NCBI GenBank assembly: GCA_963748215.1
Contig: CAVVHS010000003.1
Span: 64,001 to 128,000 of the forward strand
Origin: an uncultured Gammaproteobacteria bacterium
GTDB lineage: Bacteria > Pseudomonadota > Gammaproteobacteria > UBA9214
Direction: 5' to 3'
Length of the DNA stretch: 64,000 bases
Shown: in pieces, positions 36,058 to 63,416 of the stretch
Layout: every line of letters starts with the position of its first letter
How positions within the stretch are numbered: position 1 is the first letter of the stretch
Notes under the pieces: generated by a model
Seen by the model: only the letters and a program-made list of their open reading frames with translations
What the model was told of the DNA's origin: nothing
The model's database searches: none
Program-made: the position numbers and the translations under genes

Positions 36058-36126
36058 GATGTTCCGGATAGAGATTCAGGAAATAATTAAGCAATAAAAT
36101 GTGTCGCCGAAAATGTATCCGGCACC
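36058..36126. repeat. Type-3 repeat, degenerate doublet; left boundary of the repeat-rich region
   Basis: GATGTTCCGGATAGAGATT ... AAAATGTATCCGGCACC resembles 60877-60913. Confidence 0.55.
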
Positions 36127-36519
36127 ACTGCTGTCCCATAAACTTTTCATACCAGGCAGAGTTGCGGTGTATCGAGTGGTTTCTGATCCGTAGAATCACC
36201 TCGAAGCAGTGCCATCAGGTCACGCCGCATAAACAGGTTGAGTTGAAGCAGGCGCAGGATGTGCTGCATGGACGCACCAACTCGTGACAAATATTTCAAG
36301 TAGGCAAGCAGCAAATATACACAAATCGAAACCCAGATTTGGGTCAGTACGGCATTTCTGCTGGTGCCCAGGAAGCTGCGTATTTTCAGGTTCTGCTTTA
36401 TCCATTTGAAGAACAGTTCGATCTGCCAGCGTTGCTTGTAGATGGCTGCAATGGTAGTGGCTGCCAGCGCGAAATGATTCGTCAGGAATTCATAACGCTG
36501 TCCCGTGTCGATCGATATA
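36126..36519 (-). mobile_element. IS4-family element fragment: 3' part of the transposase (stop 36147-36149) plus probable terminal IR
   Basis: Manual translation DTGQRYEFLTNHFALAATTIAAIYKQRWQIELFFKWIKQNLKIRSFLGTSRNAVLTQIW... carries the Y-x2-R-x3-E-x6-K signature; no start codon; CACTGCTGTCCC end. Confidence 0.85.
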
Positions 36520-36589
36520 AATCAATAGGGTCAGACTCCATTGATTCGTCAATTCTGCGTCTAATCAATGGAGTCTGACCCCTTTGATT
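36520..36589. repeat. Type-1 REP doublet
   Basis: AATCAATAGGGTCAGACTCCATTGATT-CGTCAATTCTGCGTCT-AATCAATGGAGTCTGACCCCTTTGATT. Confidence 0.92.
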
Positions 36590-36686
36590 TTTGATCTTTT
36601 TTAGAGAAAAATTTGCCGGCCAGGAGTTTATGGCCGGCGGCGAGCGGAGACAGCCATTTGTCGTCCGGGGCGCTACAATGGCGGCC

Positions 36687-38588
36687 ATGCTGCAATTTGA
36701 CAATCTTGCCCTGAGACGCGGGCCACGGCTGCTGTTCGAGAACGCCACCCTGCAGATCCACCCGGGATGGAAGGTCGGCGTCACCGGCACGAACGGCACC
36801 GGCAAGTCGAGCCTGTTCGCCCTGATCCGCGACGAACTGCATGCCGATGCCGGCGCGTGCCGGTATCCGGCCGACTGGGTGATCGCCCATGTGGCGCAGG
36901 AGATGCTGGCCGAGGCGCGTGCGGCCATCGAGTACGTGCTCGACGGGGACGAGGGGCTGCGTGCGGTCGAGGCTGCGCTCGCCGCAGCGGAAGACCGGCA
37001 TGATGGCGAGCAGCTCGGCACACTGCACGCGCAGTTTGATGCCATCGGCGGCTACACGGCACGTAGCCGCGCCGCGCAGTTGCTGCATGGCCTGGGTTTC
37101 AGCAGCGCCGACGAGGACCGTCCGGTCAGCGATTTCTCGGGCGGCTGGCGCATGCGGCTGAACCTCGCCCGCGCGCTCATGTGCCGCTCGGACCTGCTGC
37201 TGCTTGACGAGCCCACCAACCATCTGGACCTTGATGCAGTCATCTGGCTGGAAAACTGGCTGTGCGCCTATGCCGGCACGCTGCTGCTGATCTCGCACGA
37301 CCGGGATTTCCTCGACAGCGTGGCCAGCCATATCGCCCACATCGAGCGCCAGCGACTCACGCTCTACAGCGGCAACTATTCGGCGTTCGAACGCCGGCGC
37401 GCGGAATACCTGGCCGGCCAGCAGGCGCAATACGAGAAACAGCAGCGCGAGATCGCTCACATGCATTCCTTTGTCGAGCGCTTCCGTGCCAAAGCCACCA
37501 AGGCGCGCCAGGCCCAGAGTCGTCTGAAGGCCCTGCAGCGCATGGAACTGATTGCCCCGGCGCACGTAGACTCACCGTTCCACTTCAGCCTGCGCGAGCC
37601 TGCGAAATTGCCGGACCCGCTGCTGCGCCTGCGCGCGGTGGCCGCCGGCTACGGCGAGACAACCGTCATCGGCGGCGTTGAACTCAGCCTCTCCCCGGGC
37701 GAACGCATCGGCCTGCTGGGTCCCAACGGCGCCGGCAAATCCACGCTGATCAAGCTGCTGGCCGGCGTGATCGAGCCGCAGCAGGGCAGGCGCGAGCCGG
37801 CGCAGGACCTGCGGATCGGCTATTTCGCCCAGCACCAGGTCGAGCAGCTCGATGCGCAGGCCTCGCCTCTAGCGCACCTGCTGCGGATCGATCCGAAGGC
37901 ACGTGAGCAGGAACTGCGCGATTATCTCGGCGGCTTCGGCTTTCCCGCCGACCAGGCGCTGGCACCGACCGGTCCGTTTTCGGGCGGAGAGAAATCGCGA
38001 CTGGTGCTGGCGCTGCTGGTCTATCAGCGGCCGAACCTGCTGCTGCTCGATGAGCCCACCAACCATCTGGACCTGGAAATGCGTCAGGCGCTGGCCACGG
38101 CCCTGCAGGACTTCGCCGGCGCCATGGTGCTGGTTTCGCACGACCGCCATCTGCTGCGTGTTACCAGCGACCGGCTGGTGCTGGTGTACGCCGGCAGGGT
38201 GGAGGAATTTCCGGACAGCCTGGATGATTACCCACAGTGGCTGACCATGCAGAACCGCCAGAGCCGGGTTGTGCCAGTAAACGCCGATGGCCCGAGTGGC
38301 GCGGCCCGGCGCAAGGAGAAAAAGCGCCAGGAGGCCGAACAGCGCCGACAGTCGCGGCCGCTGCGCGAGAAAATCTCGAAGGCGGAAGCCGCGCTTGCCG
38401 GCATGCACGCGCGGCAGCATGAACTCGAGAAGTGCCTCGCTGAACCCGGACTCTATCGCATGGAGAACAAGACCCGGCTGAATGAACTGCTGCGGGAGAA
38501 GGCGGACGTCGATCGGGAGAGTGAAGCCCTGGAACGTGACTGGCTGGAGGCCTGCGAACAACTGGAAGCGCGGCAGGCAGGTAAATAG
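36687..38588 (+). CDS. ABC-F family ATPase (YheS-like)
   Basis: Two ABC cassettes (GTNGTGKS, FSGGWRMR, LLDEPTNHLD; GPNGAGKS, FSGGEK), no TM domain. Confidence 0.92.
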   Translation: MLQFDNLALRRGPRLLFENATLQIHPGWKVGVTGTNGTGKSSLFALIRDELHADAGACRYPADWVIAHVAQEMLAEARAAIEYVLDGDEGLRAVEAALAAAEDRHDGEQLGTLHAQFDAIGGYTARSRAAQLLHGLGFSSADEDRPVSDFSGGWRMRLNLARALMCRSDLLLLDEPTNHLDLDAVIWLENWLCAYAGTLLLISHDRDFLDSVASHIAHIERQRLTLYSGNYSAFERRRAEYLAGQQAQYEKQQREIAHMHSFVERFRAKATKARQAQSRLKALQRMELIAPAHVDSPFHFSLREPAKLPDPLLRLRAVAAGYGETTVIGGVELSLSPGERIGLLGPNGAGKSTLIKLLAGVIEPQQGRREPAQDLRIGYFAQHQVEQLDAQASPLAHLLRIDPKAREQELRDYLGGFGFPADQALAPTGPFSGGEKSRLVLALLVYQRPNLLLLDEPTNHLDLEMRQALATALQDFAGAMVLVSHDRHLLRVTSDRLVLVYAGRVEEFPDSLDDYPQWLTMQNRQSRVVPVNADGPSGAARRKEKKRQEAEQRRQSRPLREKISKAEAALAGMHARQHELEKCLAEPGLYRMENKTRLNELLREKADVDRESEALERDWLEACEQLEARQAGK

Positions 38589-38700
38589 GGGACAGGCCAC
38601 GATTTCCCGGTAAATTGTCGAATCAATAGGGTCAGACTCGATTGATTCGTCAACAAGATGTCTGATAAATGGAGACAGCCCCCATTGATCTGGGGACGGG
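38583..38700. repeat. Type-4 arm followed by a type-1 doublet with degenerate second arm
   Basis: AAATAGGGGACAGGCCACGATTT; AATCAATAGGGTCAGACTCGATTGATT at 38621-38647; AAATGGAGACAGCCCCCATTGAT. Confidence 0.85.
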
Positions 38701-38736
38701 ATAGGCTACTGGCAGCAGTCTGAATGTGCAGTTTGT

Positions 38737-39480
38737 TCAACGGCAATACCATTCAACAAACCGCCTGAGAATTTCCTGGGCATGCAGGGTGGGCTTCTGG
38801 CTGACTCGCTTTTTCAGTTCTTCCGCTTCATGTGGTTCGAAATAGCCGTGATTGCGGTAGGTGTCGATACGCAATACAAATTCTTCGGCGTCTCCTTCCG
38901 GGTGGAACTGGGTGGCATACACGTTTTCGCCGATGCGAAACATCTGTATCGGGCAGCCGCTGCCTTTCATCAGTAACGTCGCCCCTTCGGGAAGGGTGTC
39001 GACGGCCTCCTTGTGTCCGAGCAAAACGTCGATCTGATCAGGAAAACCCCGAAGCAGTTTGTCCTGTTTGCCGGCCTCGGTAATATCCAGCGTGACGCAA
39101 CCCACGGCTTCGCCGTGCATTGTCGAGATACGGGTGCCGAGGTAGTTGCCCAGCAGGCCGTTGCCGGAGCAGGCGCCGAGAAAGGGAAAGTCCCGTGCGA
39201 CGACCTGTTCCAGTAGCCGGTTGAAATCGGCCTCGATCTTTTTCTGGATGCCGGATTTTCTGTCTTCCTGGGTGCTGATATCGAACGGGCTGCCACCGAC
39301 AATGATCGCGGAATAGTCTTCCGGGTTCAGGTTATCAGGGATGCCTCGCAGCTCGATGCGTTTCCTGCAGGTGTCACCGGCCTGTAAGCCGCCGTATTTC
39401 AGTATGCAGGCATATTCACTGTCGGACGTGATGTCTTCCGGTCGCAGTTGCAGAATCAGAACGGGTTTCCTGACAGCCAT
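38737..39480 (-). CDS. Class I glutamine amidotransferase
   Basis: IIVGGSP, LGACSG, QFHPE triad motifs; start uncertain. Confidence 0.88.
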   Translation of the reverse strand: MAVRKPVLILQLRPEDITSDSEYACILKYGGLQAGDTCRKRIELRGIPDNLNPEDYSAIIVGGSPFDISTQEDRKSGIQKKIEADFNRLLEQVVARDFPFLGACSGNGLLGNYLGTRISTMHGEAVGCVTLDITEAGKQDKLLRGFPDQIDVLLGHKEAVDTLPEGATLLMKGSGCPIQMFRIGENVYATQFHPEGDAEEFVLRIDTYRNHGYFEPHEAEELKKRVSQKPTLHAQEILRRFVEWYCR

Positions 39481-39505
39481 GGGTGACATTGTATTCCAAT
39501 CGCCA

Positions 39506-39523
39506 GGTTCAGACTCCATTGAT
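39506..39523 (+). repeat. Partial type-1 arm
   Basis: GGTTCAGACTCCATTGAT. Confidence 0.6.
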
Positions 39524-39651
39524 CCGGCAGGATACTGCCATGACAATCATCTGATACAGGTTGTCAGAGCACGTATTTTCATACTATAAACAGGATAAAT
39601 GCTCTGATGCCACTTTCTACGTGATACGGTCGGGAATCACGGAGTTGTGCC

Positions 39652-40377
39652 ATGCGTTATGAACTATTCTACTGGCCATCCATCCAGGGACGCGGGGAAT
39701 TCGTGCGGCTGGCACTGGAGGATACGGGCGCCGATTATTTGGACGTGGCGCGGGAACGCGGGCGTGGCCTGGGCATTGATGCCATGCTGCGTCTGATGAC
39801 TGACCCGGAGCTGGTGCGCCTGCCTTTCGCGCCCCCCTTCCTGCGGGCGGGCAGGCAGCTCATCGCGCAGACCGCGAATATTCTGCATTTCCTGGGCCCA
39901 CACCTGGGACTGGTGCCCGACTCCGCTGCAGGCCGGCTGTGGGTGCACCAGTTGCAACTCACCGTGGAAGATCTCGTGGTCGATGTGCATGACACCCATC
40001 ACCCGGTCGCCATGAGTCTCTATTACGAGGCGCAGAAAACCGAGGCCGTACGGCGTGCCGGATTCTTCACCAGGGAGCGCGCACCCGAGTTGCTGGGTTA
40101 CTTCGAAAATGTGCTGCAGCGCAATAGGGGCGGTCGCGGTTACATGGTCGGGCGCACATTCAGCTATGTCGACTTGTCGATGTTCCAGGTCATCGAGGGA
40201 CTGGGATATGCGTTCCCGAACATGATGGCGCGTCTTGCGCCGGAGATCCCTGGCCTGATGGGACTGCATTCACGCGTTGCGCAGCGGCCGAACGTCGCCG
40301 CGTATCTCGCCTCCAGGCGGCGTCTGCCGTTCAACGAAGACGGGATCTTCCGGCACTATCCGGAACTGGACGCCTGA
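39652..40377 (+). CDS. Glutathione S-transferase
   Basis: YWPSIQGRGEFVRLAL, FAPPFL, QTANIL, SYVDLSMF. Confidence 0.9.
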   Translation: MRYELFYWPSIQGRGEFVRLALEDTGADYLDVARERGRGLGIDAMLRLMTDPELVRLPFAPPFLRAGRQLIAQTANILHFLGPHLGLVPDSAAGRLWVHQLQLTVEDLVVDVHDTHHPVAMSLYYEAQKTEAVRRAGFFTRERAPELLGYFENVLQRNRGGRGYMVGRTFSYVDLSMFQVIEGLGYAFPNMMARLAPEIPGLMGLHSRVAQRPNVAAYLASRRRLPFNEDGIFRHYPELDA

Positions 40378-40546
40378 ATCAATAGGAATCAATAGGGTCA
40401 GACTCGATTGAATCTTTAAATAGCCAGCGCCTGACTGTTTCTCCTTTTCGAGAGTAATAGGGGACGGACCACGTTTTCAGATATACAGACCGCCAGGGAA
40501 ACGTGGTCTGTCCCCTGTTATATAACTGGGATCTGACGCCATTGAT
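40377..40546. repeat. Composite: type-1 left arm, copy of RAYT leader, type-4 doublet, degenerate type-1 right arm
   Basis: Arm 40387-40413; 40418-40445 matches 45311-45338 at 26/28; GGGGACGGACCACGTTT...AAACGTGGTCTGTCCCC at 40460-40515. Confidence 0.85.
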
Positions 40547-40557
40547 ACAGTGCCGGT

Positions 40558-41322
40558 TCATTTGCCCCGCGCTGCCAACTCGGGCCAGAGATCTTCCATG
40601 TGCGGTCCCCACACCGGATTGCGCTCGAGGTCCTGCAGAACCCGTTCGATTCGCCCACGCCGTTCTTCCTCGGACAGGTATTCGAGGTCCGGCATGTCCG
40701 GCATACCGCGGGGGGTATCCGCGTGCCGCTCGAGGAACTGATCGAACTCCGTTTGAAGACATTGCCGAAGGGATACCCGGACCGCTTCTGTCATTTCGAT
40801 TTGGGAGCTCGAATCGGCTGCTTCGGCGTGTGCTGCGTAGCTCAGCCGGTCGAGCTCCCGAATCGTCTGAGACCAGCGTTCCGGATCGTCGGTGAGGTCC
40901 GCGAGCCGCACGACGCGATTGGTACGGTCATTCTCTACAAGGCCCGGTCGGGTCTCGGTGGCCGGCGCTATTGGCCCGAACAGGTGATGCAGTTCGGGTA
41001 CGTAGACCCATTCGATCCAGGGTACGAGTTCGCCGTCCAGGGGCTGGTGGAGCTGCACGAATCCGGGCACGTCGTAGGACGCGTTCGCATCCGTCAGCAG
41101 GACTTCGCCAGGCCTGTAATAGCTCAGGCTATCGACGAAGTTGAATCGCGAGCCTTTGTAACGATAGGCAACGAAAGCTTTGGCAACTGACCGGCCTTCA
41201 AGGTCTGTAACCGTTCCGGACAAGGATGGCACGATGGAGATCGACACGGCGGTGATCGCCAGTGCAGTTCCAACCAGTGCAACCGTCAGGACGCGAACGA
41301 ACCATGAACGCCTCCGTCCCAT
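40558..41322 (-). CDS. Hypothetical membrane-anchored protein
   Basis: 254-aa ORF with N-terminal TM; abuts upstream ORF. Confidence 0.55.
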   Translation of the reverse strand: MGRRRSWFVRVLTVALVGTALAITAVSISIVPSLSGTVTDLEGRSVAKAFVAYRYKGSRFNFVDSLSYYRPGEVLLTDANASYDVPGFVQLHQPLDGELVPWIEWVYVPELHHLFGPIAPATETRPGLVENDRTNRVVRLADLTDDPERWSQTIRELDRLSYAAHAEAADSSSQIEMTEAVRVSLRQCLQTEFDQFLERHADTPRGMPDMPDLEYLSEEERRGRIERVLQDLERNPVWGPHMEDLWPELAARGK

Positions 41323-41997
41323 TCAGTTCGCCTGGTCGCTTGCTATGGTCTGTTCCAGTAGCAGAATCATCGTTGCCAGCAGCGGCCGGGGGTCGCTGAT
41401 TGCGCGGCCATCCTCCTTGAGTTCGATGCACCAGTCGCGCCCGAGCGCCTTCATGGCACTCCTAAGCAGCTTTCCAAACAGGCCCTGGGGTGGCTCTTTG
41501 TGTTCCTGTTCCGGTCGCGGGTGACGCTCGATGTTGCCGATGATGCGATCCCCGTCAACGATCGCGTATGCGGTGCAGCAACCCTCGAGAACGTCCTGCA
41601 TGAACTTGTCGAGTTTTCCCTGCGGATCGACGATTCGATAGAGTTCCTGATCGTTGGGTGTGCTGACTTTCATCCCGTGCGACGTGAACAGCCCGATCGT
41701 GGCCAGCCGCGCGCCGCTTGTGCCCTCGGAAACGTAGTGTGTCAGGTTCAGGATTTTGCGCTTAGGTTCGAGGCGAAAAAGCACCTGGTCATCGCCACGA
41801 GAGCGGTGGAACGTCGTTGTACCTCCGAGGCAGCTGCCGACGACATGACAGGCAAAGAGCGGCTGGTTCCCGGCATCGTTGATCGTGTACCAGCTGTTTG
41901 CGCCTTTGAGTGCGGAGATACTCTCGACTTCGGTCTTGTCGAACCGATAAAAGTTCTCGGGCATAGGTGTCGACTCTCTTGGTTGCGTCGATGTCAT
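41323..41997 (-). CDS. Hypothetical protein (possible LURP-one/tubby-like fold)
   Basis: 224-aa ORF, beta-rich pattern with terminal hydrophobic helix DPRPLLATMILL. Confidence 0.55.
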   Translation of the reverse strand: MTSTQPRESTPMPENFYRFDKTEVESISALKGANSWYTINDAGNQPLFACHVVGSCLGGTTTFHRSRGDDQVLFRLEPKRKILNLTHYVSEGTSGARLATIGLFTSHGMKVSTPNDQELYRIVDPQGKLDKFMQDVLEGCCTAYAIVDGDRIIGNIERHPRPEQEHKEPPQGLFGKLLRSAMKALGRDWCIELKEDGRAISDPRPLLATMILLLEQTIASDQAN

Positions 41998-42007
41998 CGT
42001 TTTTAGA

Positions 42008-42046
42008 AATATATGGTGTCAGAGCACATTTTTCTCTAATATTCGA
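42008..42046 (+). repeat. Type-2 arm plus spacer
   Basis: GGTGTCAGAGCACATTTTTCTCTAATATTCGAG. Confidence 0.7.
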
Positions 42047-42157
42047 GCCTGTCCTTGGAAAGTGGTCGTCCCTTGGGTTGTGCCTCGATCTGTTGTTTCA
42101 GCATGCATTCGATACAGTCTAAATGGATGCGCCTGATAGCCGATAGCGATGTTGATC

Positions 42158-43045
42158 ATGAAGACCCTTCTCAGCTTTCTATCACTCATCTTTTTCACAG
42201 GGCCCGGAAGCGCTGCGGATACCACTGTGCAGCTGGCAGGACTGGAGGCCAGCACAACCTCGCAGGTTGTCACGGCACCTCGCTGGAGCGCGCTGAACCC
42301 GAATAAACTGAAGCTCAAGTCGGCCGCGGTGCTGGTGCTGGATCAGAATGGCGAAGAAGTCTATTCCAGGCATGTGAGTGACCCTCGCCCCATCGCCTCG
42401 ATTACCAAGCTGATGACGGCGATGGTTATCCTGGACAGCGACCTCGATTTACAGGAAAAGATTACCATCACCAAAGATGACCGGGATCTGATTCAGCTGA
42501 CCGGTTCGCGGCTGAAGTATGGCGCATTACTGACACGCAAACAGATGTTGAAACTGGCACTGATGTCATCTGAAAACCGGGCAGCCAATGCACTTGCCCG
42601 CACATGGCCTGAGGGTAAAGCGGCATTTGTCGAAGCCATGAACAAAAAGGCTGATGCGCTTGGTATGCAGACCAGTCATTTTAAAGATCCGGCTGGGCTT
42701 GATCCCGGTAATGTTGCCTCCGCTCGTGACACAGCCAGAATGGTGCGCGCTGCCATGTCCTACCCGCTAATTCGTAATGCCACCACTACCCGCTCAGCCA
42801 CAGTCAGGCCATACAAGGGTCGCGGTGAACTCATGTTCAATAACACCAACCGCCTGCTGAGGAACAAGACCTGGGACATCCAGCTCAGCAAGACAGGTTA
42901 CATCAACGAGTCCGGGCGCAGCCTCGTGATGCAGGCTGAGATTGACGACCAGCCACTCACCATTGTGCTGCTCAACTCCTTTGGCAAGCTGACACCCTTC
43001 GGCGACTCCAACCGAATTCGGAAGTGGATTGAGAGCGGTAGATAA
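42158..43045 (+). CDS. pbpG: D-alanyl-D-alanine endopeptidase (PBP7, peptidase S11)
   Basis: ASITK (SxxK), SEN (SxN), KTG motifs; signal peptide. Confidence 0.88.
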   Translation: MKTLLSFLSLIFFTGPGSAADTTVQLAGLEASTTSQVVTAPRWSALNPNKLKLKSAAVLVLDQNGEEVYSRHVSDPRPIASITKLMTAMVILDSDLDLQEKITITKDDRDLIQLTGSRLKYGALLTRKQMLKLALMSSENRAANALARTWPEGKAAFVEAMNKKADALGMQTSHFKDPAGLDPGNVASARDTARMVRAAMSYPLIRNATTTRSATVRPYKGRGELMFNNTNRLLRNKTWDIQLSKTGYINESGRSLVMQAEIDDQPLTIVLLNSFGKLTPFGDSNRIRKWIESGR

Positions 43046-43051
43046 AAACAA

Positions 43052-43121
43052 AATCAAATGGGTCAGACTCGATTGATTCGTCAATATTGCGTCTAATCAA
43101 AGGAGTCTGACCCCTTTGATT
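43052..43121. repeat. Type-1 REP doublet
   Basis: AATCAAATGGGTCAGACTCGATTGATT-CGTCAATATTGCGTCT-AATCAAAGGAGTCTGACCCCTTTGATT. Confidence 0.92.
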
Positions 43122-43135
43122 CATTGGGTGGGCTT

Positions 43136-43672
43136 ATGGCATTAAAGCCAAGAATATATAAATTAAGAATCGCGCTTTCTGATGTCGACCGGGATTATTA
43201 TGACACACTGAATTTAACGATTGCCCAACACCCATCTGAAACACTTGAACGAATGATGGTGCGTGTTCTGGCATTTTGTATCAATGCACAGGAACAACTG
43301 GTGTTTACAAAAGGACTTTGCGCCGTGGACGAACCCGACATATGGGTTCGCACACTGGACGGTCAACTTGCATTATGGGTCGATGTAGGGGAGCCGGCTG
43401 TTGATAGGATAAAAAAGGCAACACGACTTTCTCCGGCAGTTAAGGTTTATAGCTTTAATTCCAAATCGGATGTTTGGTGGGATCAGGGGCGAGCAAAGCT
43501 CAATGAGCTGACTGTGTCAATCTTTCAGTTTCAGTGGGAAAGCATTCAGGCATTGGCGGCGCTGGCGCAGCGTACGATGGATCTTTCCATCACTATTGCA
43601 GATGATTCTGCCTATGTTGCCACTGAATCAGGAGAATGTGAGGTGTCCTGGGTGCCATTGCAAGTTGCATGA
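43136..43672 (+). CDS. yaeQ: YaeQ family protein
   Basis: MALKPRIYK, AQHPSETLERMMVR, FTKGL, DEPDIW. Confidence 0.92.
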   Translation: MALKPRIYKLRIALSDVDRDYYDTLNLTIAQHPSETLERMMVRVLAFCINAQEQLVFTKGLCAVDEPDIWVRTLDGQLALWVDVGEPAVDRIKKATRLSPAVKVYSFNSKSDVWWDQGRAKLNELTVSIFQFQWESIQALAALAQRTMDLSITIADDSAYVATESGECEVSWVPLQVA

Positions 43673-43685
43673 TTGAATATCTATT

Positions 43686-43755: not shown

Positions 43756-43766
43756 CGTTGATCCGG

Positions 43767-56209: not shown

Positions 56210-56393
56210 ACTCTGCTTCCGTTGTGTGTCCGGGGAATGGTGTATTCTATCCCGTGACGGCATGGATTCAGCGAAGTAAAGGTTGTCAGGATGCATTTTT
56301 CGCTAATATCAGCCGGAAATGTGCTTTTGCACCATTATCTAATGCGCTTGCGTTGCCAGGCTGCGAAAAAAAACTGTATTCAGGAGGTAACCG

Positions 56394-56921
56394 ATGATTT
56401 CGAAAGACATGGCGGCCAGTCTCAACGCCCAGATCAATCGCGAGATGTACTCGGCGTACTTCTATCTGGGCCTGTCCGCGCAGGCCGAGACGGCGAATCT
56501 CAAAGGCGCGGCCGCCTGGTTCTTTGCCAAGCACGGAGAGGAGATGGCCCACGCCTTGAAGATTTACCGCTACCTCGTCGATCAGGACGCCGAGGTCCAC
56601 TTCAGCGAAATTGCTGCTCCGCCGGCCAACTCGGAGGGCATCATGCACATGTTCGAGCAGACGCTGGCGCACGAGCGTGAAGTAACGGGAGCCATCAACG
56701 AGCTAGTGGACAAGGCCCTTCAGGAAAGGGACCACGCGACCAACGTGTTCCTGCAGTGGTTCATCACCGAACAGATCGAGGAAGAGGCGACCGTGAACGA
56801 CATACTCGGCCGCCTGCGCCTGTTCGGTGACCAGGGTCAGGGCCTGTTGATGATCGACAACGAACTTGCCGGGTTGGCAAAACAGATGAGCCAGGGAATG
56901 GCAGCCGAAACCGGGGTGTAA
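56394..56921 (+). CDS. ftnA: Non-haem ferritin
   Basis: QINREMYSAYFY, EEMAHA, HEREVT, FLQWFITEQIEEE. Confidence 0.92.
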   Translation: MISKDMAASLNAQINREMYSAYFYLGLSAQAETANLKGAAAWFFAKHGEEMAHALKIYRYLVDQDAEVHFSEIAAPPANSEGIMHMFEQTLAHEREVTGAINELVDKALQERDHATNVFLQWFITEQIEEEATVNDILGRLRLFGDQGQGLLMIDNELAGLAKQMSQGMAAETGV

Positions 56922-56945
56922 TCGCGGCGCATTATGGGAAAGAAC

Positions 56946-56973
56946 AAACAACCGGGATCCGACCCCATTGATC
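56946..56973 (-). repeat. Degenerate type-1 arm
   Basis: AAACAACCGGGATCCGACCCCATTGATC; overlaps stop of the next ORF. Confidence 0.65.
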
Positions 56974-57950
56974 AGTCGCACATCCCGATGAGTTCTGAAG
57001 CGACTTCGTGGAGGAAGTCCTCCTTCGGATTTATCCCTTTGATCAGCGGTACCCCGCTCACCAGTGGCCAGTATCGGTCCTGCGTCTGGCTGGCCCAGAT
57101 AAGTTGCACTCCCGGGCCCAGTGGATACAAGGCGATAAGGCTGTCCAGACGAGGGTAGGATTCCAGGAACGTCCCGAATCGTGGATCGACTTCGGGCACT
57201 GGTGCGTAAGCGACCATATCCTGATACGTCGCGCGTCCCCTGGGAATCGGCGCGTCAGGAGGAGTCGACGTCGGCCTGATGAGTTGCATGGGCAATTTTG
57301 AACTCGCCAGCAAAATGCGTTCAAGCCGGGCCTCGAAGGTGCCGGACGAATCCCGGGGTACGGATCGTTCCAGATGCTTACCCATGTTGGTCAGTCCATA
57401 GAGCGTAACGGGGACGCGTGTTTCGGCGATCCCGACGCCGTCGGGCGGCCATCTGACGGGTGCGGCCGGATCGCCGCCCTGCGCGTGCTTCACCGCCTCT
57501 GCAAGCGCGCTCGTGCCGGAAAGTGCGGACTTCGTGTGCACTGGCAATGCGGCAAGAATGGCAGCGGCCCGCCCACCCAACCCCTGTTCGGCAAGCAGCG
57601 GCGCCAGAGCGGCGATCAATTCGGTCCTGGAATGTGCGCGAGTAAAAGCCTGTGCAGGGGCGGTCAGTCTGATTTCATGAAAAGGTCCCCATGTAAATTT
57701 CCCGGCAGCGAACTTGTGCTCCGTCCAGGCACCGTGGTACACATGCCTGGCAACAAGCGGTTTCCTGCAAGGCTGCAAGCTCCTTTCGAATCCGGCAAAC
57801 CGCCGTTTCCATCGGCGCTTCGTCAGCGAGCGGTGTGGGTGTTCCGTAGTCGAAGGGCTGTTGCGTTTGCCGCCAGAGGTAGAACTCCCGGCCCATCCAT
57901 CCGATCGCGCCAAATACCAGCAAAGCGATCAGCAAGACGATCATGTTCAC
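56972..57950 (-). CDS. Hypothetical protein, probably one frameshifted gene with an N-terminal TM
   Basis: TM segment in ORF 57675-58085 and long overlapping ORF 56972-57913; boundaries uncertain. Confidence 0.4.
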
Positions 57951-58093
57951 GGCGCTGTGGGATCTGTAGTGAAATTGCAATTCGTCTCCGTTGGGTATGG
58001 TGCGCCACAAAAGGACAGGAAGGCGCGCCGACGAGGGCCATGAGAGCAGCACCGACCCGGCAGCGAATCTAATACCCAACCGCAACGGGCAGG

Positions 58094-59158
58094 CTACTGC
58101 TCCAGGTTCGTATCACCGGCCGTGGGATTCAATCGAATGGAAACATGTGCGCCGGCATATTGTCCATTGGAACTGCGATTTACTGAAACGGGATTTACCG
58201 AGCCCCGGCAATAACGCTTGCCGATGCGACAAAAGAAATATTGCGTGTCATCGGTTTCGAGATCCAGCGCCAGGGTTGGCTGGTAACCGTCAACCGGTGC
58301 GCGCTTCATTTCCAGGTCGATCTTGCGCACATATCGACTCTGCGGCTGGAAAAGGATTACACCGCCATCGGCAGGGCCGAAATCCAGTATCGGTTCGACC
58401 GGTTTCCTGAAGCTGCTACTCGTACCGGGCCGCCGTACCTCCTGGGTGGCAATCTCCCCGTTCGCCGTTTTTTTCACCTTCAGTTCCAGGTAGAGGATAT
58501 CCCCGTCGAATTTTCTGAGCGTTGCTGTTTCTGTCAGTCGGCTAATCGGTTCCGCCCGGGAAGTCTGGCCAAACGACAGCGGTAACACTTCATTCCGATC
58601 CTGGCTCACGATCAGCATGCCGCTATAGTGTTCCAGCGCCACTCGCACACCGCGCTTCTCCAGCACTACCTTCTCATCGGTCTTGATGATCTCCCGGTTC
58701 GGGTTGTCATCGGCATAGGTGACATACTCCACTCGTTCGCGGTAGTAACCGTCCTTATTGAACTCCAGCCGGACGCCGGCACAGGCATCACAGGCATATT
58801 CAAACGACCCGTTCACCGGCTGCTCCCGGCTGCTCTCTTTCAGGTCCGTGCTTTGGAGTGAGTCATACTCCAGCGTAACGATCTCCATCACCACATCATC
58901 CAGAGGCTTGCCTTGCCCATCCACGATGATACCGGCAAGCCGGACCTTGCCACTGAATGACTGGCGCATCATTTGCTCATACAGTTTCATGGCTTCTTCT
59001 TGCTTGCCGGCCTCCATTAATTCCTGGATCTGCCGCGCGAGTTCCATCTGCCGTTGCGCGTCGCCTTGTGCGAGAGTACACGGAACTGAAAGAACGAAAG
59101 TCGCAAGTAACGCAAACAGAAATAGCAGGGGCTTAAGGACACTGGTCATGATGTTCAT
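58094..59158 (-). CDS. Hypothetical secreted protein with a carboxypeptidase-regulatory-like beta domain
   Basis: Signal peptide; GIIVDGQGKPLDDV and FNKDGY pattern. Confidence 0.65.
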   Translation of the reverse strand: MNIMTSVLKPLLFLFALLATFVLSVPCTLAQGDAQRQMELARQIQELMEAGKQEEAMKLYEQMMRQSFSGKVRLAGIIVDGQGKPLDDVVMEIVTLEYDSLQSTDLKESSREQPVNGSFEYACDACAGVRLEFNKDGYYRERVEYVTYADDNPNREIIKTDEKVVLEKRGVRVALEHYSGMLIVSQDRNEVLPLSFGQTSRAEPISRLTETATLRKFDGDILYLELKVKKTANGEIATQEVRRPGTSSSFRKPVEPILDFGPADGGVILFQPQSRYVRKIDLEMKRAPVDGYQPTLALDLETDDTQYFFCRIGKRYCRGSVNPVSVNRSSNGQYAGAHVSIRLNPTAGDTNLEQ

Positions 59159-59268
59159 ACCTTTATGTTACAAGAGCGTCGGGAACAGGCAGAATAAATG
59201 CCCTTTTCCTTTCTCGTCAACGGATGTTCCCGGATCCATGGCGAATCAAGCGACCTGCCCACCTGGAG

Positions 59269-59299
59269 TGGATACATTATTACAAAAATGTCTCCGGCC
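59269..59299. repeat. Type-3 doublet
   Basis: TGGATACATTATTACAAAAATGTCTCCGGCC, 29/31 identical to 60880-60910. Confidence 0.85.
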
Positions 59300-59314
59300 G
59301 CTTTACGCCCTGTG

Positions 59315-60789
59315 TTACCAGCCAAGTAATGGAAACATCAACAGCAGGTCTGACAAGTCAATTTGGCCATCCGGTGCGCCAGCCGGGTAAAGATCACCGT
59401 GTTCCAGGTCGACAGAAGTGGCTGTTTCGAGACCAAGTACAATCCGTTGCATCAACAGTAAATCCCCGGCATTCACCATGCCATCCGGCGAACCTGACGG
59501 AGCAACGTCGCCATCACTGTGTGGCGAAAGATCAATATCATCCTGGATGCCATCGCCATCAGTATCTGTGGACAGCGGGTTGAGGTCGGTAATCGGGTTG
59601 TATGACGCGGGATTACCATCGTAATTCACTTCATCGTAGTCACTCAGGTTGTCTCCATCCGAATCGACGAGTAACGGATTTGTGCCGATAGTCCCCTCGA
59701 ATACGTCACTGAGGCCATCGTTATCGTCATCAGGATCGCAGGCGTCCCGAGTCCATCGCCGTCAGCGTCCGCCTGGCCGGGGTTGGCAATTGACGGACAG
59801 TTATCGGGGTTCTTGAGAATGGTGAAAGAATCCGGGGTGGTGCCATCACTCCGGACAAATGTTGCATCCAGGCGGTTGCCGTCAATATCCAGCACCAGTG
59901 AGCCAAGCAAATTAAGGGATGCATGGACCATTACCGGATGTTCCAGGGGGCCGCCGCTGATCTTGCCGGAACTGCCGGCCGTGATGTAGACGGCGCCCTG
60001 ATAGGGATCGACTTCATCATAAACCGCCTTGTAAGCACCGTCCCCGCCTTCCTGACCGTTGCCGGCGTCGATCTTCATGGCATTGGTAAGCGTATCGGAG
60101 CTGCCGTAGTGGCCGTTGAGCAGGAATGACCGCTCATAGGAATGACTGTGACCGGACAACACCAGGTCCACACCGGCCGCTTCCAGGATCGGCAGTGCGT
60201 TCTGGCGCATTTCAATCAATTGCGACTCGGTATCGGAATCGTGACTGCCCTTGGAATAGGGAGGGTGATGCCAGAAGGCGATAATCCACTGCTGCGATGT
60301 CGCTGCAATGTCAGCGCTCACCCATGTCATCATGGCCCCGGTCGAAAAACGGTCTGACTCGTGGGAATCCAGGCAGATAAAATGGATGTTGCCGTAATCA
60401 AAGGAATAGTAAGCCTCGGTGCCACTGGCCAGGCCACCCGCTTCGCCGGCTGTCGGTAAAGTAAAAATGTTGTAGTAGGGTCCAGTCTGTGTGGCTGAGG
60501 ACGCCGAAATTCCATCATGATTACCCAGTGTTGCCCAGAGCACGGATTTACGCAGCATCTGCGGGTAGGTGTCGAAAACAGCGGTCTGGTATTCACTGTC
60601 AGTACCACTGTTATAGGCGTTATCGCCCAGCATCAGCCACAGGTCGGTGTGGGTGCTGCCGGTAATGAGCTGTAGGCATTGGCCACGGCCTGTGCATCGG
60701 CATTTGCTGTGCCGGAATCGCCCAGTACCCAGATGCGGGTCGGCTTGCCGGTGCCGGTGACAGGTGAAGTGACAAACAGGTGGTCCAGC
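59315..60789 (-). pseudogene. Purple-acid-phosphatase-like metallophosphoesterase with thrombospondin-3-like repeats and dockerin-like tail; 5'-truncated and frameshifted
   Basis: GDSG, LGDNAY, GNHD, HHPPY, GHSHSYER; DNCP...DADGDG; GDV...DGMVNAGDLL; coding signal starts directly at the repeat. Confidence 0.78.
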
Positions 60790-60858
60790 ATCAACAGGGT
60801 CAGACTCGATTGATACGTCAACCGAACGTCTATTCAATCGAGTCTGACACCATTGATT
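60790..60858. repeat. Type-1 REP doublet
   Basis: ATCAACAGGGTCAGACTCGATTGATA-CGTCAACCGAACGTCT-ATTCAATCGAGTCTGACACCATTGATT. Confidence 0.9.
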
Positions 60859-60876
60859 TTGATTTAAATAAAAAAA

Positions 60877-60913
60877 GGCTGGATACATTATTACAAAAAT
60901 GTATCCAGCCCCC
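60877..60913. repeat. Type-3 doublet
   Basis: GGCTGGATACATT-ATTACAAA-AATGTATCCAGCC perfect 13-bp stem. Confidence 0.85.
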
Positions 60914-60931
60914 TTTATCCGCATTATCCAG

Positions 60932-61471
60932 TCAGGATGCCTTACTGATCCAGTAATCTTTCAGTCCGAGCCTGGTGGCTATATTCGCGGCCTGGACCGT
61001 CGCGGCTTGTCTTGACGGGAATCCCCGGACATAGACTCGCCAGAACTGCCGGCCGTTGTGATCTACACGTTGGTGTGCTGCATCGAATCCGGCAGCCCTG
61101 ATGCGTTCGACCATTTCATTCGCAATGTCAGGCGCTGTGTGTGAAGCAAGGTTTACGTGCCAGTTGACACGTGCTTTCGTGGCGGCGGGCCGGGCAGCAT
61201 CGATTGCATTCGAGGCTGCGAACAGGGTGTCCTTCGGCTTCTCCACGGGTGGCGGCTGAGGATCAGGGTCTGAATCATCCGATTCGGGCAGAGTCTCGTA
61301 TATCCCCGAATCCGCCTCGACATCGATGGTGACAATGTCTGAATCCATGGTATAGCCGGGGCTGCCCTCTTCAGCTGTGTGATGCCGACTCTGGACGATC
61401 ACGGATGCCACGATGGCGACCATCAATAGATAGGAAGCGATAATCCTGGGGCGTTGAGCCGGGGTCGCCAT
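60932..61471 (-). CDS. SPOR domain protein
   Basis: N-terminal TM, acidic/Pro linker, WHVNLAS...WRVYVRGFPSR. Confidence 0.8.
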   Translation of the reverse strand: MATPAQRPRIIASYLLMVAIVASVIVQSRHHTAEEGSPGYTMDSDIVTIDVEADSGIYETLPESDDSDPDPQPPPVEKPKDTLFAASNAIDAARPAATKARVNWHVNLASHTAPDIANEMVERIRAAGFDAAHQRVDHNGRQFWRVYVRGFPSRQAATVQAANIATRLGLKDYWISKAS

Positions 61472-61602
61472 GGCGTTTTCATATCCTTTGTCAGGCTTGT
61501 TATTGGTTTCATGCGTCCGTCACAGACGTGGGCAGGGCACGGATTCAGCCTAAAGGAATTCCAGCTATGCGTGAATTGTACGGAGGTACGAGGTTTCAAA
61601 GG

Positions 61603-61669
61603 AATCAATGGGGTCAGACTCGATTGATTCGTCAACAAGATGTCTGACTAGTGGAATCTGACTCCATTG
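61603..61669. repeat. Type-1 doublet with degenerate second arm
   Basis: AATCAATGGGGTCAGACTCGATTGATTCGTCAACAAGATGTCTGA; spacer identical to that at 38648. Confidence 0.88.
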
Positions 61670-61678
61670 CCAATATGC

Positions 61679-61999
61679 TCAACGCTTCAGGTTCTTCAAT
61701 CGCTTGTTGCCAGGCTTTTCGGGGTGCTGTTCAAAGAACCAGTTATCCAGTGCCTCCTGCTTGCCAGTCTCGTGCTGCTGCTGTGCGGATGCTTCGGTGC
61801 CGCGGCACAGATCCAGGGTTATGGCAAGCGCGCGCTGCCTGCCAGGTTCGGACTGGGCCAGCAGTTCTTCTGTATTCAGGCGGTCAACGATCTGCCTTGA
61901 TAAGGTCTCACAGTCCAGGTCGATGCCCTCGGCAAGCGCGCCATGACTGATGACCGCGAGTACCATGAAAAAATATCCGGACGTCCATATTTTTTTCAT
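61679..61999 (-). CDS. Hypothetical secreted protein
   Basis: GGAG RBS, signal peptide ending ALA, two Cys, basic tail. Confidence 0.6.
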   Translation of the reverse strand: MKKIWTSGYFFMVLAVISHGALAEGIDLDCETLSRQIVDRLNTEELLAQSEPGRQRALAITLDLCRGTEASAQQQHETGKQEALDNWFFEQHPEKPGNKRLKNLKR

Positions 62000-62025
62000 A
62001 ACTGCTCCACCTGGAATAAACAATG

Positions 62026-62083
62026 AATAAACGGGTTCAGAGCACACACATCCTGATATTAGTATAAATTGTGCACTGATCAC
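62026..62083. repeat. Type-2 doublet
   Basis: AATAAACGGGTTCAGAGCACAC ... AAATTGTGCACTGATCAC. Confidence 0.75.
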
Positions 62084-62120
62084 GTGTTTCGAAAATGTCT
62101 TCAGGCCCTTTTTTATCAGG

Positions 62121-62840
62121 TCAATTCGTCCAGCAGTTCCAATACCATCCTGTGCCAGGTTCCCCAGGGGCTGTCACGAAGCTCGGTGGCAATCCTGAGG
62201 CGTGAAGCGATATTCGTAATACCGGATAAGGGATTGCCCTGTCCGGCGGAAAAAAGTCATCCAGTTCGATGCATTGGTGGCACACGCCAGTCTTGGAGAT
62301 CAGCGTGCAAATCGTACCGTAGTGCGCTGTCATGTAGTGCCTGGCCTCCTGCAGCCAGTTCTTGGCTTGTCCAGGTGACGCGTCGAGTAAATCTGCAACT
62401 TCGTCGCTGGTGAAACCGTGTACTTCCCTGAGCAGCAATGCAGCAGCCTTCTGTTCCGGAAGATTGCGCAATGTACATGCCAGGCAGGCTACAAGATGTT
62501 CACGTGCGATTGCCCTTGTCTCCGGGGTGCTGGCCAGGGCCTTTGACTGTTCGATTAATGCGGGGTTGGCCTCTGCAGCATCGCGTAAATCCAGGATCAT
62601 GTTCTCCCGCCATGTTGAATGTTTTCGCAACTCATCGAACGCCAGATTGGTGGCCACCTTGAATAACCAGGCGCGTATTCCATCGCCTGTTTCGGGCAGG
62701 TGGTCCGATGCTTCGAGGCAGCGCAGATAGGTCGTCTGCAGTAAATCTTCAGCTACCTGGGGCCGGACCACCAGTCGGCAGAGATACGCGTGCAATTCTC
62801 CCCGGATCCTTTCGAAACAGCTTGTCAGTGCATTTTCCAT
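62121..62840 (-). CDS. ECF sigma-70 factor with Cys-containing C-terminal extension
   Basis: AEDLLQTTY, AWLFKVATN (region 2); LPEQKAAALLLREVHGF (region 4); CTLISKTGVCHQC; possible frameshift at the A-run near 62250. Confidence 0.85.
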   Translation of the reverse strand: MENALTSCFERIRGELHAYLCRLVVRPQVAEDLLQTTYLRCLEASDHLPETGDGIRAWLFKVATNLAFDELRKHSTWRENMILDLRDAAEANPALIEQSKALASTPETRAIAREHLVACLACTLRNLPEQKAAALLLREVHGFTSDEVADLLDASPGQAKNWLQEARHYMTAHYGTICTLISKTGVCHQCIELDDFFPPDRAIPYPVLRISLHASGLPPSFVTAPGEPGTGWYWNCWTN

Positions 62841-62913
62841 CCGTTTTATCGTTCTCAAACGTATTGGTAATGAGGAGCGCGATTTTGCGTAGAAGGGATC
62901 CGCATGGCAAGGG

Positions 62914-62946
62914 AATCAACAAATCAATCGAGCCTGACCCTGTTGA
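62914..62946 (-). repeat. Type-1 arm
   Basis: AATCAAC-AAATCAATCGAGCCTGACCCTGTTGA. Confidence 0.82.
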
Positions 62947-62967
62947 GGAGGTGGTAAGTGAAAAAAA

Positions 62968-63390
62968 ATGATACTGCGATCACTGGTCGCCGGTTGGGCC
63001 GGGGGATTTGCCGGAAATGCATTGCTTGGCGCATTGTTCTCCAGTACGCGGGTCAGAGAAATTCTCTATAACCCCGAGGTGCAGAGCCAGCTGTTTATCT
63101 CGCTGACCCCGCAGAGAAACATTGCCCTATCGGTTGCCGGTCTGGTCGTTCTGAGCGGGCTGCATGGTGTCCTGTTCGCCATTCTCAGGCCACCGATACC
63201 GGGTGAGTTCTGGATTGGAAAAGGTGTCTGGTGGGGGCTCGCGCTCTGGGTGATGTACTGGCTGGTTCAGGAATGGTTCATTTATATCACGCTGCTTGGC
63301 GAACCCCTGTGCCTGGCAGCTTTCGAACTGGGTATTCTGTTGGTCGGTTCGCTGGTGGAAGGTGTTGTCATTGCCGGGCTGCTGATGTGA
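62968..63390 (+). CDS. Hypothetical four-TM membrane protein
   Basis: Four hydrophobic segments; flanked by directly repeated type-1 arms. Confidence 0.7.
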   Translation: MILRSLVAGWAGGFAGNALLGALFSSTRVREILYNPEVQSQLFISLTPQRNIALSVAGLVVLSGLHGVLFAILRPPIPGEFWIGKGVWWGLALWVMYWLVQEWFIYITLLGEPLCLAAFELGILLVGSLVEGVVIAGLLM

Positions 63391-63416
63391 ATCAATGGAG
63401 TCTGACCCCATTGATC
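63390..63416 (-). repeat. Type-1 arm
   Basis: AATCAATGGAGTCTGACCCCATTGATC; first A is the last base of the TGA stop. Confidence 0.9.

Follow-up and report, generated by a model that had tools for sequence, protein, structure and literature searches.

How does an array of ordinary genes come to have a short palindrome at many of its junctions and a transposase gene in its midst? We asked this of a 64,000-nucleotide stretch of the genome of an uncultured gammaproteobacterium (contig C3, positions 64001–128000), referred to below as the window. The array occupies 36–64 kb of the window (C3:100000–128000), which is 28 kb or 0.8% of the source genome (G000; 3.52 Mb in nine contigs, 95% complete). 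It comprises 31 called genes, A to AE, with 30 junctions between them; genes were called by a simple longest-open-reading-frame (ORF) rule, under which some starts are too long. Gene K encodes a transposase of the RAYT type, that is, a tyrosine transposase associated with repetitive extragenic palindromic (REP) sequences. An earlier interpretation of the letters alone (the sequence-only reading) had taken the RAYT and its repeats for an integron-like system that captures, stacks and shuffles genes. Our results upheld the clustering of the repeats around gene K and the reordering of the locus among relatives; nothing in them showed capture, and control comparisons argued against any need for it. 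Instead, the RAYT may spread its repeats over short distances into a plastic region of the genome, where the repeats may then favor recombination that preserves gene orientation.

The REP1 repeats and their transposase gene

The repeat, which we call REP1, is a 27-nt imperfect hairpin with a CGTCAA tag. A search with the pattern AATCAATRGGGTCAGACTCGATTGATT at up to 3 mismatches returned 14 matches in the window, all between 36520 and 63416, against 0 expected from 100 shuffles; the palindromic array is real, as the sequence-only reading had held. That reading was also correct that the first 36 kb of the window are empty, both of REP1 at up to 7 mismatches and of the core of a second hairpin, type-2. 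A looser repeat search recovered 19 REP1 copies in the window (families D1 and D3), seven of them as 71-nt inverted doublets. Each doublet runs from a conserved left arm through the CGTCAA tag (invariant in 7 of 7), about five variable bases and GCGTCT or a variant of it, to an inverted and decayed right arm. The spacer contains a second CGTC in direct, not inverted, orientation (36547–36562, and likewise in the other six). A single arm folded as a stem of 7+4 bp with one internal mismatch and a 3-nt loop, and the doublet folded as one long hairpin (−26.9 kcal/mol, z = −9.85); the hairpin folds beat those of shuffled sequences with z of −5 to −10. We concluded that REP1 and its doublet have the anatomy of a REP and of a REPIN (REP doublet forming hairpin).

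The seven doublets had unrelated flanks beyond their 71 nt, and no conserved flank that might mark a target site was seen among them. Two pairs of doublets share identical spacers (38620 with 61602, and 43051 with 54997) but show no similarity outside the 71-nt unit. Because the likeness ends with the unit, the doublet has multiplied as a discrete element and not within larger duplications. Orientation was strongly biased: six of the seven doublets share one orientation, the seventh being inverted, and of the 10 tagged arms on contig C3 all but one (9 of 10) belong to the + strand. At 10 of the 14 sites REP1 stands 0–33 nt from a stop codon.

REP1 was found at 14 of the 30 gene junctions (plus one weak case), and a repeat of any family (REP1, type-2, a third repeat D10, or a 150-nt repeat) at about 20–22 of them, so the earlier claim of a repeat at nearly every junction was somewhat overstated. 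Sixteen loci had been listed for REP1. Fourteen of these held up, although the copy at 39498 has 6 mismatches and that at 52608 is a half copy; the locus at 56946 was weak (66% in the repeat search, not found at up to 7 mismatches), and at 44171 we found a type-2 hairpin instead (44191–44260). The 14 firm sites delimit 13 intervals of 0.44–6.5 kb. Eight of the intervals measure 0.44–2.0 kb, and some hold three to seven genes over 5.7–6.5 kb; the proposed units of one to three genes, about 20 in number, are therefore fewer and in part larger. Their mixed orientation was borne out, with 14 of the 29 ORFs in the REP1 intervals and flanks on the + strand and 15 on the − strand.

Gene K lies inside the array and is intact. 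Its translation contains H-V-H at residues 60–62 and a YRYIELNP tyrosine motif, which we take to be the catalytic motifs. Against the NCBIfam model REP_Tyr_transpos (NF047646) it scored 69.1 bits, which is below the 80-bit cut-off, and this makes the protein a divergent member of the family or a member of a sister family. Among solved structures it had no sequence match at E ≤ 0.01. The gene is bracketed by inverted copies of REP1, a tagged copy at 45280 (+) and another at 46106 (−), and the same bracketing occurs in the relatives G008 and G002. The source genome has five matches to Y1_Tnp in total, and each type has its own flanking repeat; the copy on contig C2 is flanked by GTAG-type REPs, and D10, which is related to REP1 and type-2, flanks another RAYT type on contig C9. 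K itself is single-copy, its next best match being 49% identical.

The second RAYT type was present twice on C9 (316002–316682 and 333335–334015), 17 kb apart and with identical scores. Both copies are 49% identical to K and are flanked by GAATAGGGGACAGACCACG-type (D10) repeats.

Orthologs of K at 80–90% identity were found in G008, G002 and G043, in each case in the cbbQ-flanked region described below. Homologs at 57–69% identity occur in many Gamma- and Betaproteobacteria and in a few other lineages. Of 160 loci from a wide range of taxa, 118 had REP1, at up to 5 mismatches from the source-genome consensus, no more than 250 nt from the RAYT homolog. On this comparison the unit of REP, RAYT and REP (the REPtron) is conserved from Gamma- to Betaproteobacteria, far beyond the genus.

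The loci concerned (L043–L202) include Nitrosospira, Sedimenticola, Gallionella, Methylococcaceae, Cellvibrionaceae, Electrothrix and an alphaproteobacterial metagenome-assembled genome. REP1 was nearly unchanged beside RAYT homologs only ~60% identical to K, and the DNA site is thus far better conserved than the protein. At two of these loci (L110 and L170) one 13-mer occurred 37 times in 20 kb beside the RAYT homolog; it may belong to a CRISPR array or to a tandem repeat.

Genome-wide mapping confirmed the predicted clustering of the repeats around the RAYT. At up to 6 mismatches the genome holds 36 REP1 sites (0 in a reversed-genome control), of which 17 lie in C3:100000–128000 and 18 within ±30 kb of K, where 0.61 would be expected. 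The remaining copies are scattered as doublets and small groups, several of them beside type-2 hairpins (C5:132–137 kb, C6:580–590 kb, C6:881–883 kb and C7:88 kb). In G002, 14 of 34 REP1 hits fall in 9 kb beside the orthologous RAYT. The two other families behaved alike within ±30 kb of their cognate RAYTs: 5 of 14 copies for D10 (0.24 expected) and 18 of 135 for REPc (2.3 expected). We concluded that enrichment of REPs near the cognate RAYT is general in this genome, holding in all three of the pairs tested. Outside the cluster, tag orientation could be set against skew at three sites only and was uninformative.

The locus in related genomes

Gene A, a cbbQ-type gene, ends a left flank of ~20 kb that is collinear in G008 and G002, and collinearity with both genomes returns on the right at window coordinate ~94–95 kb. 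By this comparison the array makes up the left half of a plastic genome region of ~58 kb, with a conserved core block on either side; the corresponding region measures ~60 kb in G008 and ~107 kb in G002. Its GC content is 0.50–0.61, compared with 0.59–0.64 to its left. There is no GC-skew turn on contig C3, and the plasticity is therefore not an effect of the replication terminus.

Within this region the gene order is scrambled. It reads A B C D G H I J K ... U V W Z AB AG AI in the source genome, A I G K J N-O C-D V AG AB AI AE in G008, and A K B G Z C W V AB U AG AI in G002. Orientation was nonetheless kept in 11 of 12 DNA segments relative to G008 and in 11 of 12 relative to G002; when the metagenome locus L043 was set against G008, where order is thoroughly scrambled, 15 of 15 segments kept it (the number of BLAST segments varies with the settings). 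Many segment ends in these comparisons fall at repeats. Gain, loss and reordering of genes at the homologous locus, which the sequence-only reading had expected, were thus all observed: related species have a RAYT, REP1 and sister hairpins at the same site and differ in gene content.

The RAYT and both of its REPs are intact in G008 and G002, with homology running exactly from REP to REP, and the pair of genes next to the RAYT was different in each of seven genomes (G000, G008, G002, L043, L044, L047 and L046/L048). Between the source genome and G008, several genes, among them G, I, AE, D and the RAYT, keep the adjoining REP while the neighbor across the REP changes. The strand bias was also shared: relative to the cbbQ flank, tagged arms lie on the equivalent strand in all 9 good hits in G002, in 5 of 5 in G043 and in 5 of 7 in G008.

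Other members of the group vary this arrangement. The compact array of G002 has REP1 sites roughly 0.5–1.9 kb apart, and there the REPs separate unrelated single genes in mixed orientation (PhnA/YjdM, SOUL, glycine-transporter-like, methyltransferase and others). The region in G008 contains further hairpin variants with a common GGGG.C.G core, a second RAYT type adjoining K, and several RAYT remnants. Both G040 and G042 carry multiple RAYT copies or fragments, in each case on a single contig and within tens of kb, and in G037, G039, G041 and G043 a RAYT with 27–80% identity to K lies 1.4–30 kb after cbbQ. G038 gave no REP1 match and no strong match to K at the cbbQ site, with one weak match on another contig; its YaeQ and gene-I homologs are still 3.6–20 kb from cbbQ. 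The closest relative, G007, is too fragmented, giving single-gene matches only, and no junction was readable in it at the nucleotide level.

One pair of array genes could be followed to a second location. Genes L and M are found elsewhere in G037, G039 and G041, with no REP1 nearby; in G039 they stand beside orthologs of C7:440.7–447.5 kb of the source genome, and in G041 ~6 kb away from them. When C7:434–449 kb was examined as a possible empty site, it held no REP of the scanned families and no scar. The comparison shows relocation of the pair, and says nothing on mechanism.

In G037 (C17:223174–226231) and G039 (C8:124893–127892) an extra gene stands between the isoaspartyl peptidase gene L and its neighbor M. 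Its ortholog in the source genome, 84–87% identical, is at C7:192.4–193.2 kb, inside a region saturated with GTAG-type REPs. Because the ortholog lies on C7, gene relocation in the genus is not confined to the RAYT locus.

Explanations of the scrambled order

We put about an even chance on the following account: a Group-1-like RAYT spreads REPINs, over short range and strand-specifically, into the plastic region, and the dense, co-oriented repeats then favor orientation-preserving recombination. From what is known of IS200/IS605 elements and RAYTs, the protein would bind the tagged hairpin where the replication fork exposes single-stranded DNA, cut it and rejoin it, and would in this way move the REPtron and the gene-less 71-nt REPIN short distances with one strand polarity. 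Short-range action is suggested by the enrichment of each of the three cognate families near its RAYT gene. The copies would collect in intergenic gaps around the RAYT, mostly just after stop codons, in ~58 kb of fast-turnover DNA that would tolerate insertions between its core blocks. Co-oriented REP1 copies and sister repeats would then serve as short homologies for unequal recombination, by duplication and loss or by excision and re-insertion, and such recombination would explain why order is scrambled and orientation kept. REP-mediated chromosomal duplications are known in Salmonella, and gene order can change by tandem duplication and random loss. Our locus resembles these cases in having short palindromes as join points and in changing order with orientation kept; it differs in that no duplication intermediate was seen, and the link to them is one that we infer. 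That repeats promote rearrangement is stated in general terms in the REPORTH preprint, and rare REPIN excisions are reported for RAYT/REPIN systems in PMC3116915.

Several results weigh against this account. No transposition, cleavage or recombination event was seen directly, and the contigs of public sequencing runs were uninformative on the matter. The duplication-loss route left no direct trace, since G000, G008 and G002 contain no recent large internal duplications, only RAYT remnants and fragments of 130–270 nt, all direct. Segment ends at repeats are partly trivial because repeats fill much of the short intergenic gaps, and the comparisons are not independent because the relatives used (G002, G008, L043 and others) are akin to each other. 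Dense arrays are also scarce: among 40 loci with at least 5 kb on both sides of the RAYT homolog, 18 had no extra REP1 within ±10 kb, 11 had one, and 4 had at least four; three of these four dense loci come from this genus, one of them covering the same place as G008. Since such arrays are rare in the family, a local pile-up does not follow automatically from having a RAYT. The likeness of K to Group 1 RAYTs is one of properties, namely wide spread and low repeat copy number, and not of comparison with reference sequences. Lastly, genes B, C, G, U, V, W and Z, which G002 shares with the source genome, lie there 5–33 kb from any REP1 and are equally rearranged.

This last result is what one would expect if the repeats were passengers only, with plasticity arising from other causes (replacement by horizontal DNA through flank recombination, deletions and insertions) and REPs colonizing permissive DNA near the RAYT. 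We consider this possible, though rather unlikely. The lower GC of the plastic region, the presence of L and M elsewhere without a REP1 nearby and the missing duplications are all in its favor. So is the absence of the genome's abundant families (REPa with 283 copies, REPb with 170, REPc with 115, and two others), which summed to 0 copies in the 28 kb of the array versus ~6 expected and would fit DNA of short residence. However, random insertion, replacement or inversion is not expected to keep orientation, which was kept in nearly all segments of the three comparisons described above, with genes equally on both strands. The passenger account also leaves aside genes G, I, AE and D and the RAYT, which retain the adjacent REP while the far neighbor changes, and the REP1-free stretch of G002, which bears type-2 hairpins at many junctions.

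Alternatively, the RAYT itself might mobilize gene-sized single-stranded DNA between tagged REP1 arms of fixed polarity, which would amount to gene shuffling, and perhaps capture, by an HUH enzyme. This is close to what the sequence-only reading had proposed, and we regard it as doubtful. Strand-specific single-strand transposition would be expected to produce both the orientation-preserving scrambling and the co-oriented tagged arms. Excision of IS608 drops once an element exceeds the length of DNA that is single-stranded at the replication fork, and the single-gene sizes of eight of the 13 intervals, like the REP1 spacing in G002, fit this limit. The exactly REP-bounded REPtron in seven different contexts and the unrelated single genes between REPINs in G002 point the same way. 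On the other side, neither the run contigs nor the empty-site test yielded a circle, a junction or a pair of donor and empty site. The units are ordinary, mostly single-copy genes in mixed orientation to the repeats, several share an interval with two to six others, and the shared genes of G002 are not bounded by REP1. A control region on another contig was also telling. At C7:181–207 kb, GTAG-type REPs and bacterial interspersed mosaic elements (BIMEs) stand in nearly every intergenic gap, as saturated as the RAYT array, yet a genome-wide profile search found no Y1_Tnp match anywhere on C7; the region is collinear with insertions and deletions in G002 and scattered in G008. Thus the pattern of a repeat at most junctions exists there with another REP family and no RAYT nearby. 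To our knowledge, RAYTs have been linked only to the movement of REPs and REPINs, not of genes.

A third alternative is that the array came in as an island, together with a repeat family of its own, so that the clustering reflects foreign origin and not local spread. Lower GC than in the flanks, the lack of the host's GTAG-type REPs in the 28 kb, and the occurrence of the RAYT-REP1 pair in very distant taxa, which fits horizontal movement of the REPtron, could be read in this way. We consider it very unlikely, because a RAYT-bearing plastic region stands beside cbbQ in G002, G008, G037, G039, G041 and G043, and this shared position across the genus points to genes that follow the species tree. 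Moreover, the array contains single-copy genes of housekeeping type (for example, the only phosphofructokinase gene), half of the genome's REP1 copies are found at other sites, and there is no integrase or tRNA gene at the boundary.

Support for the assembly was sought in public metagenome runs, of which five from two studies carry most of the stretch, as contigs only. The contigs of four runs (X1, X3, X5 and X7), which are of the unitig type, were compared over 36000–55999. There the unitigs end inside REPINs, and most junctions have no independent check. Nevertheless, run contigs cross three REP1 sites: a 958-nt contig of X5 crosses the doublet at 36519–36589; contigs of X1, X3 and X5 (38636 to 39769–40070) cross 39498; and contigs of X1 and X3 cross 46106 at the K-L junction and reach gene L. 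We concluded that these bridging contigs give partial independent support for the assembly. Other run contigs contained joints between distant sites (e.g., 36552 to 46107, 38654 to 46108, and 43122 to 55079). Because the sides of these joints measure only 20–47 letters and lie in REP arms, with other spacer letters between them, they are best taken as further REPIN copies, from this genome or from related ones. As the contigs of the four runs break in repeats, they gave no usable evidence of circles or of deletions at repeats.

That the unit order is a chimera made by an assembler jumping between repeat copies is scarcely credible: the runs that carry the stretch are metagenomes, so that the nine-contig, 95% complete assembly may itself be metagenome-derived, and unitigs break within REPINs and leave most junctions uncheckable from the runs, but the repeats are just 27–71 nt long and 61–92% alike, which is short for mis-joining in so contiguous an assembly, three REP1 sites are bridged, and the independent assemblies of relatives carry the same kind of array at the same locus. 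The sequence-only reading had named this outcome as fatal to itself, together with an even spread of repeats through the genome and an unchanged order in relatives lacking the repeats, and we found none of the three.

Known systems and other features of the array

On the evidence above, the locus largely is, and works like, a REPIN-RAYT system. As in the descriptions of such systems (Nunvar 2010; PMC3116915; PMC5581495), a Y1/HUH gene is flanked by inverted palindromes, inverted doublets of the palindrome are present as well and fold into one long hairpin, each RAYT has one cognate family, and the family clusters beside the RAYT. In Pseudomonas fluorescens SBW25, according to Bertels and Rainey (2011, PMC3116915), a REPIN cluster lies beside each RAYT, so this feature was known already. 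Group 1 RAYTs, a little-studied group, are described by Bertels et al. (2017, PMC5581495) as widely distributed, with ~12 occurrences of the flanking 16-mer per replicon and no tie to abundant REPs. What differs here is the small and local population (36 copies, half within 30 kb of the RAYT, and not a large dispersed one), the CGTCAA tag in place of GTAG, a divergent protein under the NCBIfam cut-off for RAYTs, and a plastic site with scrambled gene order that is shared across the genus.

Two better-studied relatives of the system bear on the repeat itself. In the Escherichia coli REPtron of TnpA-REP and BIMEs (Ton-Hoang et al. 2012; Messing et al. 2012, PMC3479197), the gene is likewise bracketed by REPs, and the tagged hairpin is the presumed site of binding and cleavage; K differs in having no match to solved structures, in its tag, and in repeats that are local and not genome-wide. 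The CGTC-tagged REPs of Di Nocera et al. (2013, PMC3733652) are reported to have stems of 8–9 bp, loops of 4–5 nt, a predominance of dimers, rare clusters and no dedicated transposase. REP1 agrees with them in the CGTC at the end of the palindrome, in A-T pairs at the first two stem positions and in the predominance of dimers, but it has a mismatched stem of 7+4 bp and a 3-nt loop, is strongly clustered, and flanks a RAYT in 118 of 160 loci.

The IS200/IS605 elements encode a Y1 transposase, have subterminal hairpins and undergo strand-specific, replication-coupled single-strand transposition. Our locus shares the Y1 transposase and the hairpins, and strand-specific transposition would account for the tagged arms' preference for one strand; it differs in that the full element K is single-copy in the source genome and only the gene-less doublet has multiplied.

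The likeness to integrons is a functional resemblance only. It consists of a conserved anchor, unrelated genes between imperfect palindromes that hug gene 3′ ends, and content that differs among relatives. Membership was ruled out, given that contig C3 has no IntI, no attC core was found, genes are in mixed orientation and intervals hold several single-copy chromosomal genes. In particular, the genome's five matches to tyrosine recombinases (PF00589) all lie outside C3, no recombinase besides the Y1 protein was found among 30 scanned ORFs, and the attC cores RYYYAAC and GTTRRRY, sought on both strands up to 35 nt from each end of the doublets, were present in 0 of 7. The sequence-only reading had likewise noted an intact RAYT without integrase or attC. 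No tRNA gene was found in the window. A literature search whose scope left out most subscription journals found no paper that ties RAYTs to gene-cassette arrays.

What lies between the repeats is a set of ordinary chromosomal genes and not of cassettes. Eighteen of 30 ORFs matched Pfam families of housekeeping type: ABC-F ATPase, class-I amidotransferase (GATase), glutathione S-transferase (GST), DD-carboxypeptidase, YaeQ, MsrA-thioredoxin, isoaspartyl peptidase, BNR protein, esterase, metallo-beta-lactamase fold, MtfA peptidase, phosphofructokinase (PFK), ferritin, metallophosphoesterase, SPOR protein and extracytoplasmic function (ECF) sigma factor. Of the 29 ORFs that lie between cbbQ and gene AE, 21 had no second copy in the genome at >50% coverage, and the array holds the genome's only PFK, ferritin, YaeQ and isoaspartyl peptidase genes.

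Apart from the rare REPIN excisions, the only activity reported for RAYTs is the cutting and rejoining of single-stranded REP DNA in vitro. The locus is a natural record of RAYT activity: a small, young-looking repeat family, mostly within 30 kb of its transposase, of one polarity and comparable across a genus. Two generalities are suggested, namely that REP copies are enriched near the cognate RAYT (three of three pairs here) and that a REP-RAYT pair can stay nearly unchanged in its DNA across classes while the protein drifts to ~60% identity. If repeats do drive orientation-preserving scrambling, REPINs would be tied to the making of flexible genome regions; if the RAYT moves gene-sized segments, the locus would be functionally analogous to an integron, though free of a recombinase, and a whole genus would share it. 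The CGTC-tagged palindromes, which in 2013 were described as transposase-less (PMC3733652), may here have a transposase.

The features of the array are collected in Table 1.

Table 1. Window coordinates of the REP1 copies, the RAYT gene and the principal landmarks of the array
Feature	Position	Strand	Basis or remark
cbbQ/norQ-type AAA ATPase, gene A; last of left core block, left boundary of plastic region	35243..36055	+	Pfam AAA_5 and CbbQ_C
In-window part of ~58 kb plastic region, which reaches window coordinate ~94–95 kb (C3:~158 kb)	36056..64000		scrambled relative to G008, G002 and L043
REPIN1 doublet (tagged left arm, CGTCAA-N5-GCGTCT spacer, inverted right arm)	36519..36589	+	family D3; fold −26.9 kcal/mol
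REPIN1 doublet, degenerate right arm, 33 nt past ABC-F stop codon	38620..38690	+	spacer identical to 61602
Degenerate REP1 singlet, 6 mismatches, in divergent GATase/GST gap	39498..39524	+	REP1 at same junction in G008
REP1 singlet, then 92%-identical RAYT-leader copy; D10-type repeat at 40456–40478	40387..40445	+	families D4 and D10
REPIN1 doublet, 7 nt past DD-carboxypeptidase stop codon	43051..43121	+	spacer identical to 54997
REPIN1 doublet, the only inverted one	43685..43755	-	88% complementary to 43053–43120; gene I junction kept in G008
Type-2 hairpin, ~65 nt, arms GGGTGTCGGAGCACA.../...TGTGCTC...	44191..44260		families D5 and D7
REPtron left REP1 end, CGTCAA-tagged, overlapping msrA-type stop codon	45280..45306	+	G008/G002 homology begins exactly here
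RAYT gene K, Y1/HUH transposase, 240 aa	45399..46121	+	Pfam Y1_Tnp 8.9e-16
REPtron right REP1 end, inverted, overlapping RAYT stop codon	46106..46132	-	G008/G002 homology stops exactly here
Half REP1 copy split by nested type-2 hairpin	52608..52704	+	fold −22.5 kcal/mol, z −5.2
REPIN1 doublet between convergent mtfA-type and PFK genes	54997..55067	+	spacer as 43051
REPIN1 doublet	60788..60858	+	repeat search, alignment
REPIN1 doublet	61602..61672	+	spacer as 38620
Degenerate REP1 singlet, 4–5 mismatches	62922..62948	-	pattern search
REP1 singlet upstream of 943-aa gene AE	63390..63416	-	REP-AE junction kept in G008

The first 16 nt of type-2 nearly match REP1, and the two are sister families. 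Besides the copy in Table 1, type-2 hairpins stand at 39554, 42009, 48413–48479, 50352/50471, 52623–52704 (nested in the REP1 copy at 52608–52704) and 62018–62085, with more to the right of the window. The genome has 31 copies, 9 of them within ±30 kb of K.

At 40387–40478 a REP1 singlet, the RAYT-leader copy and a D10-type repeat follow one another with no transposase gene. The singlet and leader are probably the scar of a lost REPtron copy; given that two RAYT types stand side by side in G008, the whole segment looks like the scar of such a pair. A repeat of ~150 nt at 51596–51785 has at least 10 more copies on C5, C6, C7 and C8, at 76–90% identity, and looks like a separate family of MITE type. 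Its summed metagenome contig depth at 51672 was 137–555 in X1, X3 and X5.

In the control region (C7:181200–207500) the GTAG-tagged palindromes are of two kinds, with 283 and 170 copies genome-wide, and occur as inverted pairs. A tandem array of seven ~101-nt units, each joined to a CACGGAA-rich repeat, lies at C7:181292–181944.

The public runs also differed from the window at the left edge of the array. A contig of X7 joins 36053 to 36597, which brings the ABC-F gene's start next to the end of cbbQ, and omits 543 nt that include the first doublet; it has 99.3% identity over 1.6 kb of the ABC-F gene and a side of 49 letters at the joint. In X3 and X5 a skip of 244 nt was found in the same spacer. 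At 90% likeness or more, X7 covers genes B, G and V and hardly any others, which fits variable gene content, if weakly. The skips at 36053–36597 are strain-level differences at this edge of the array.

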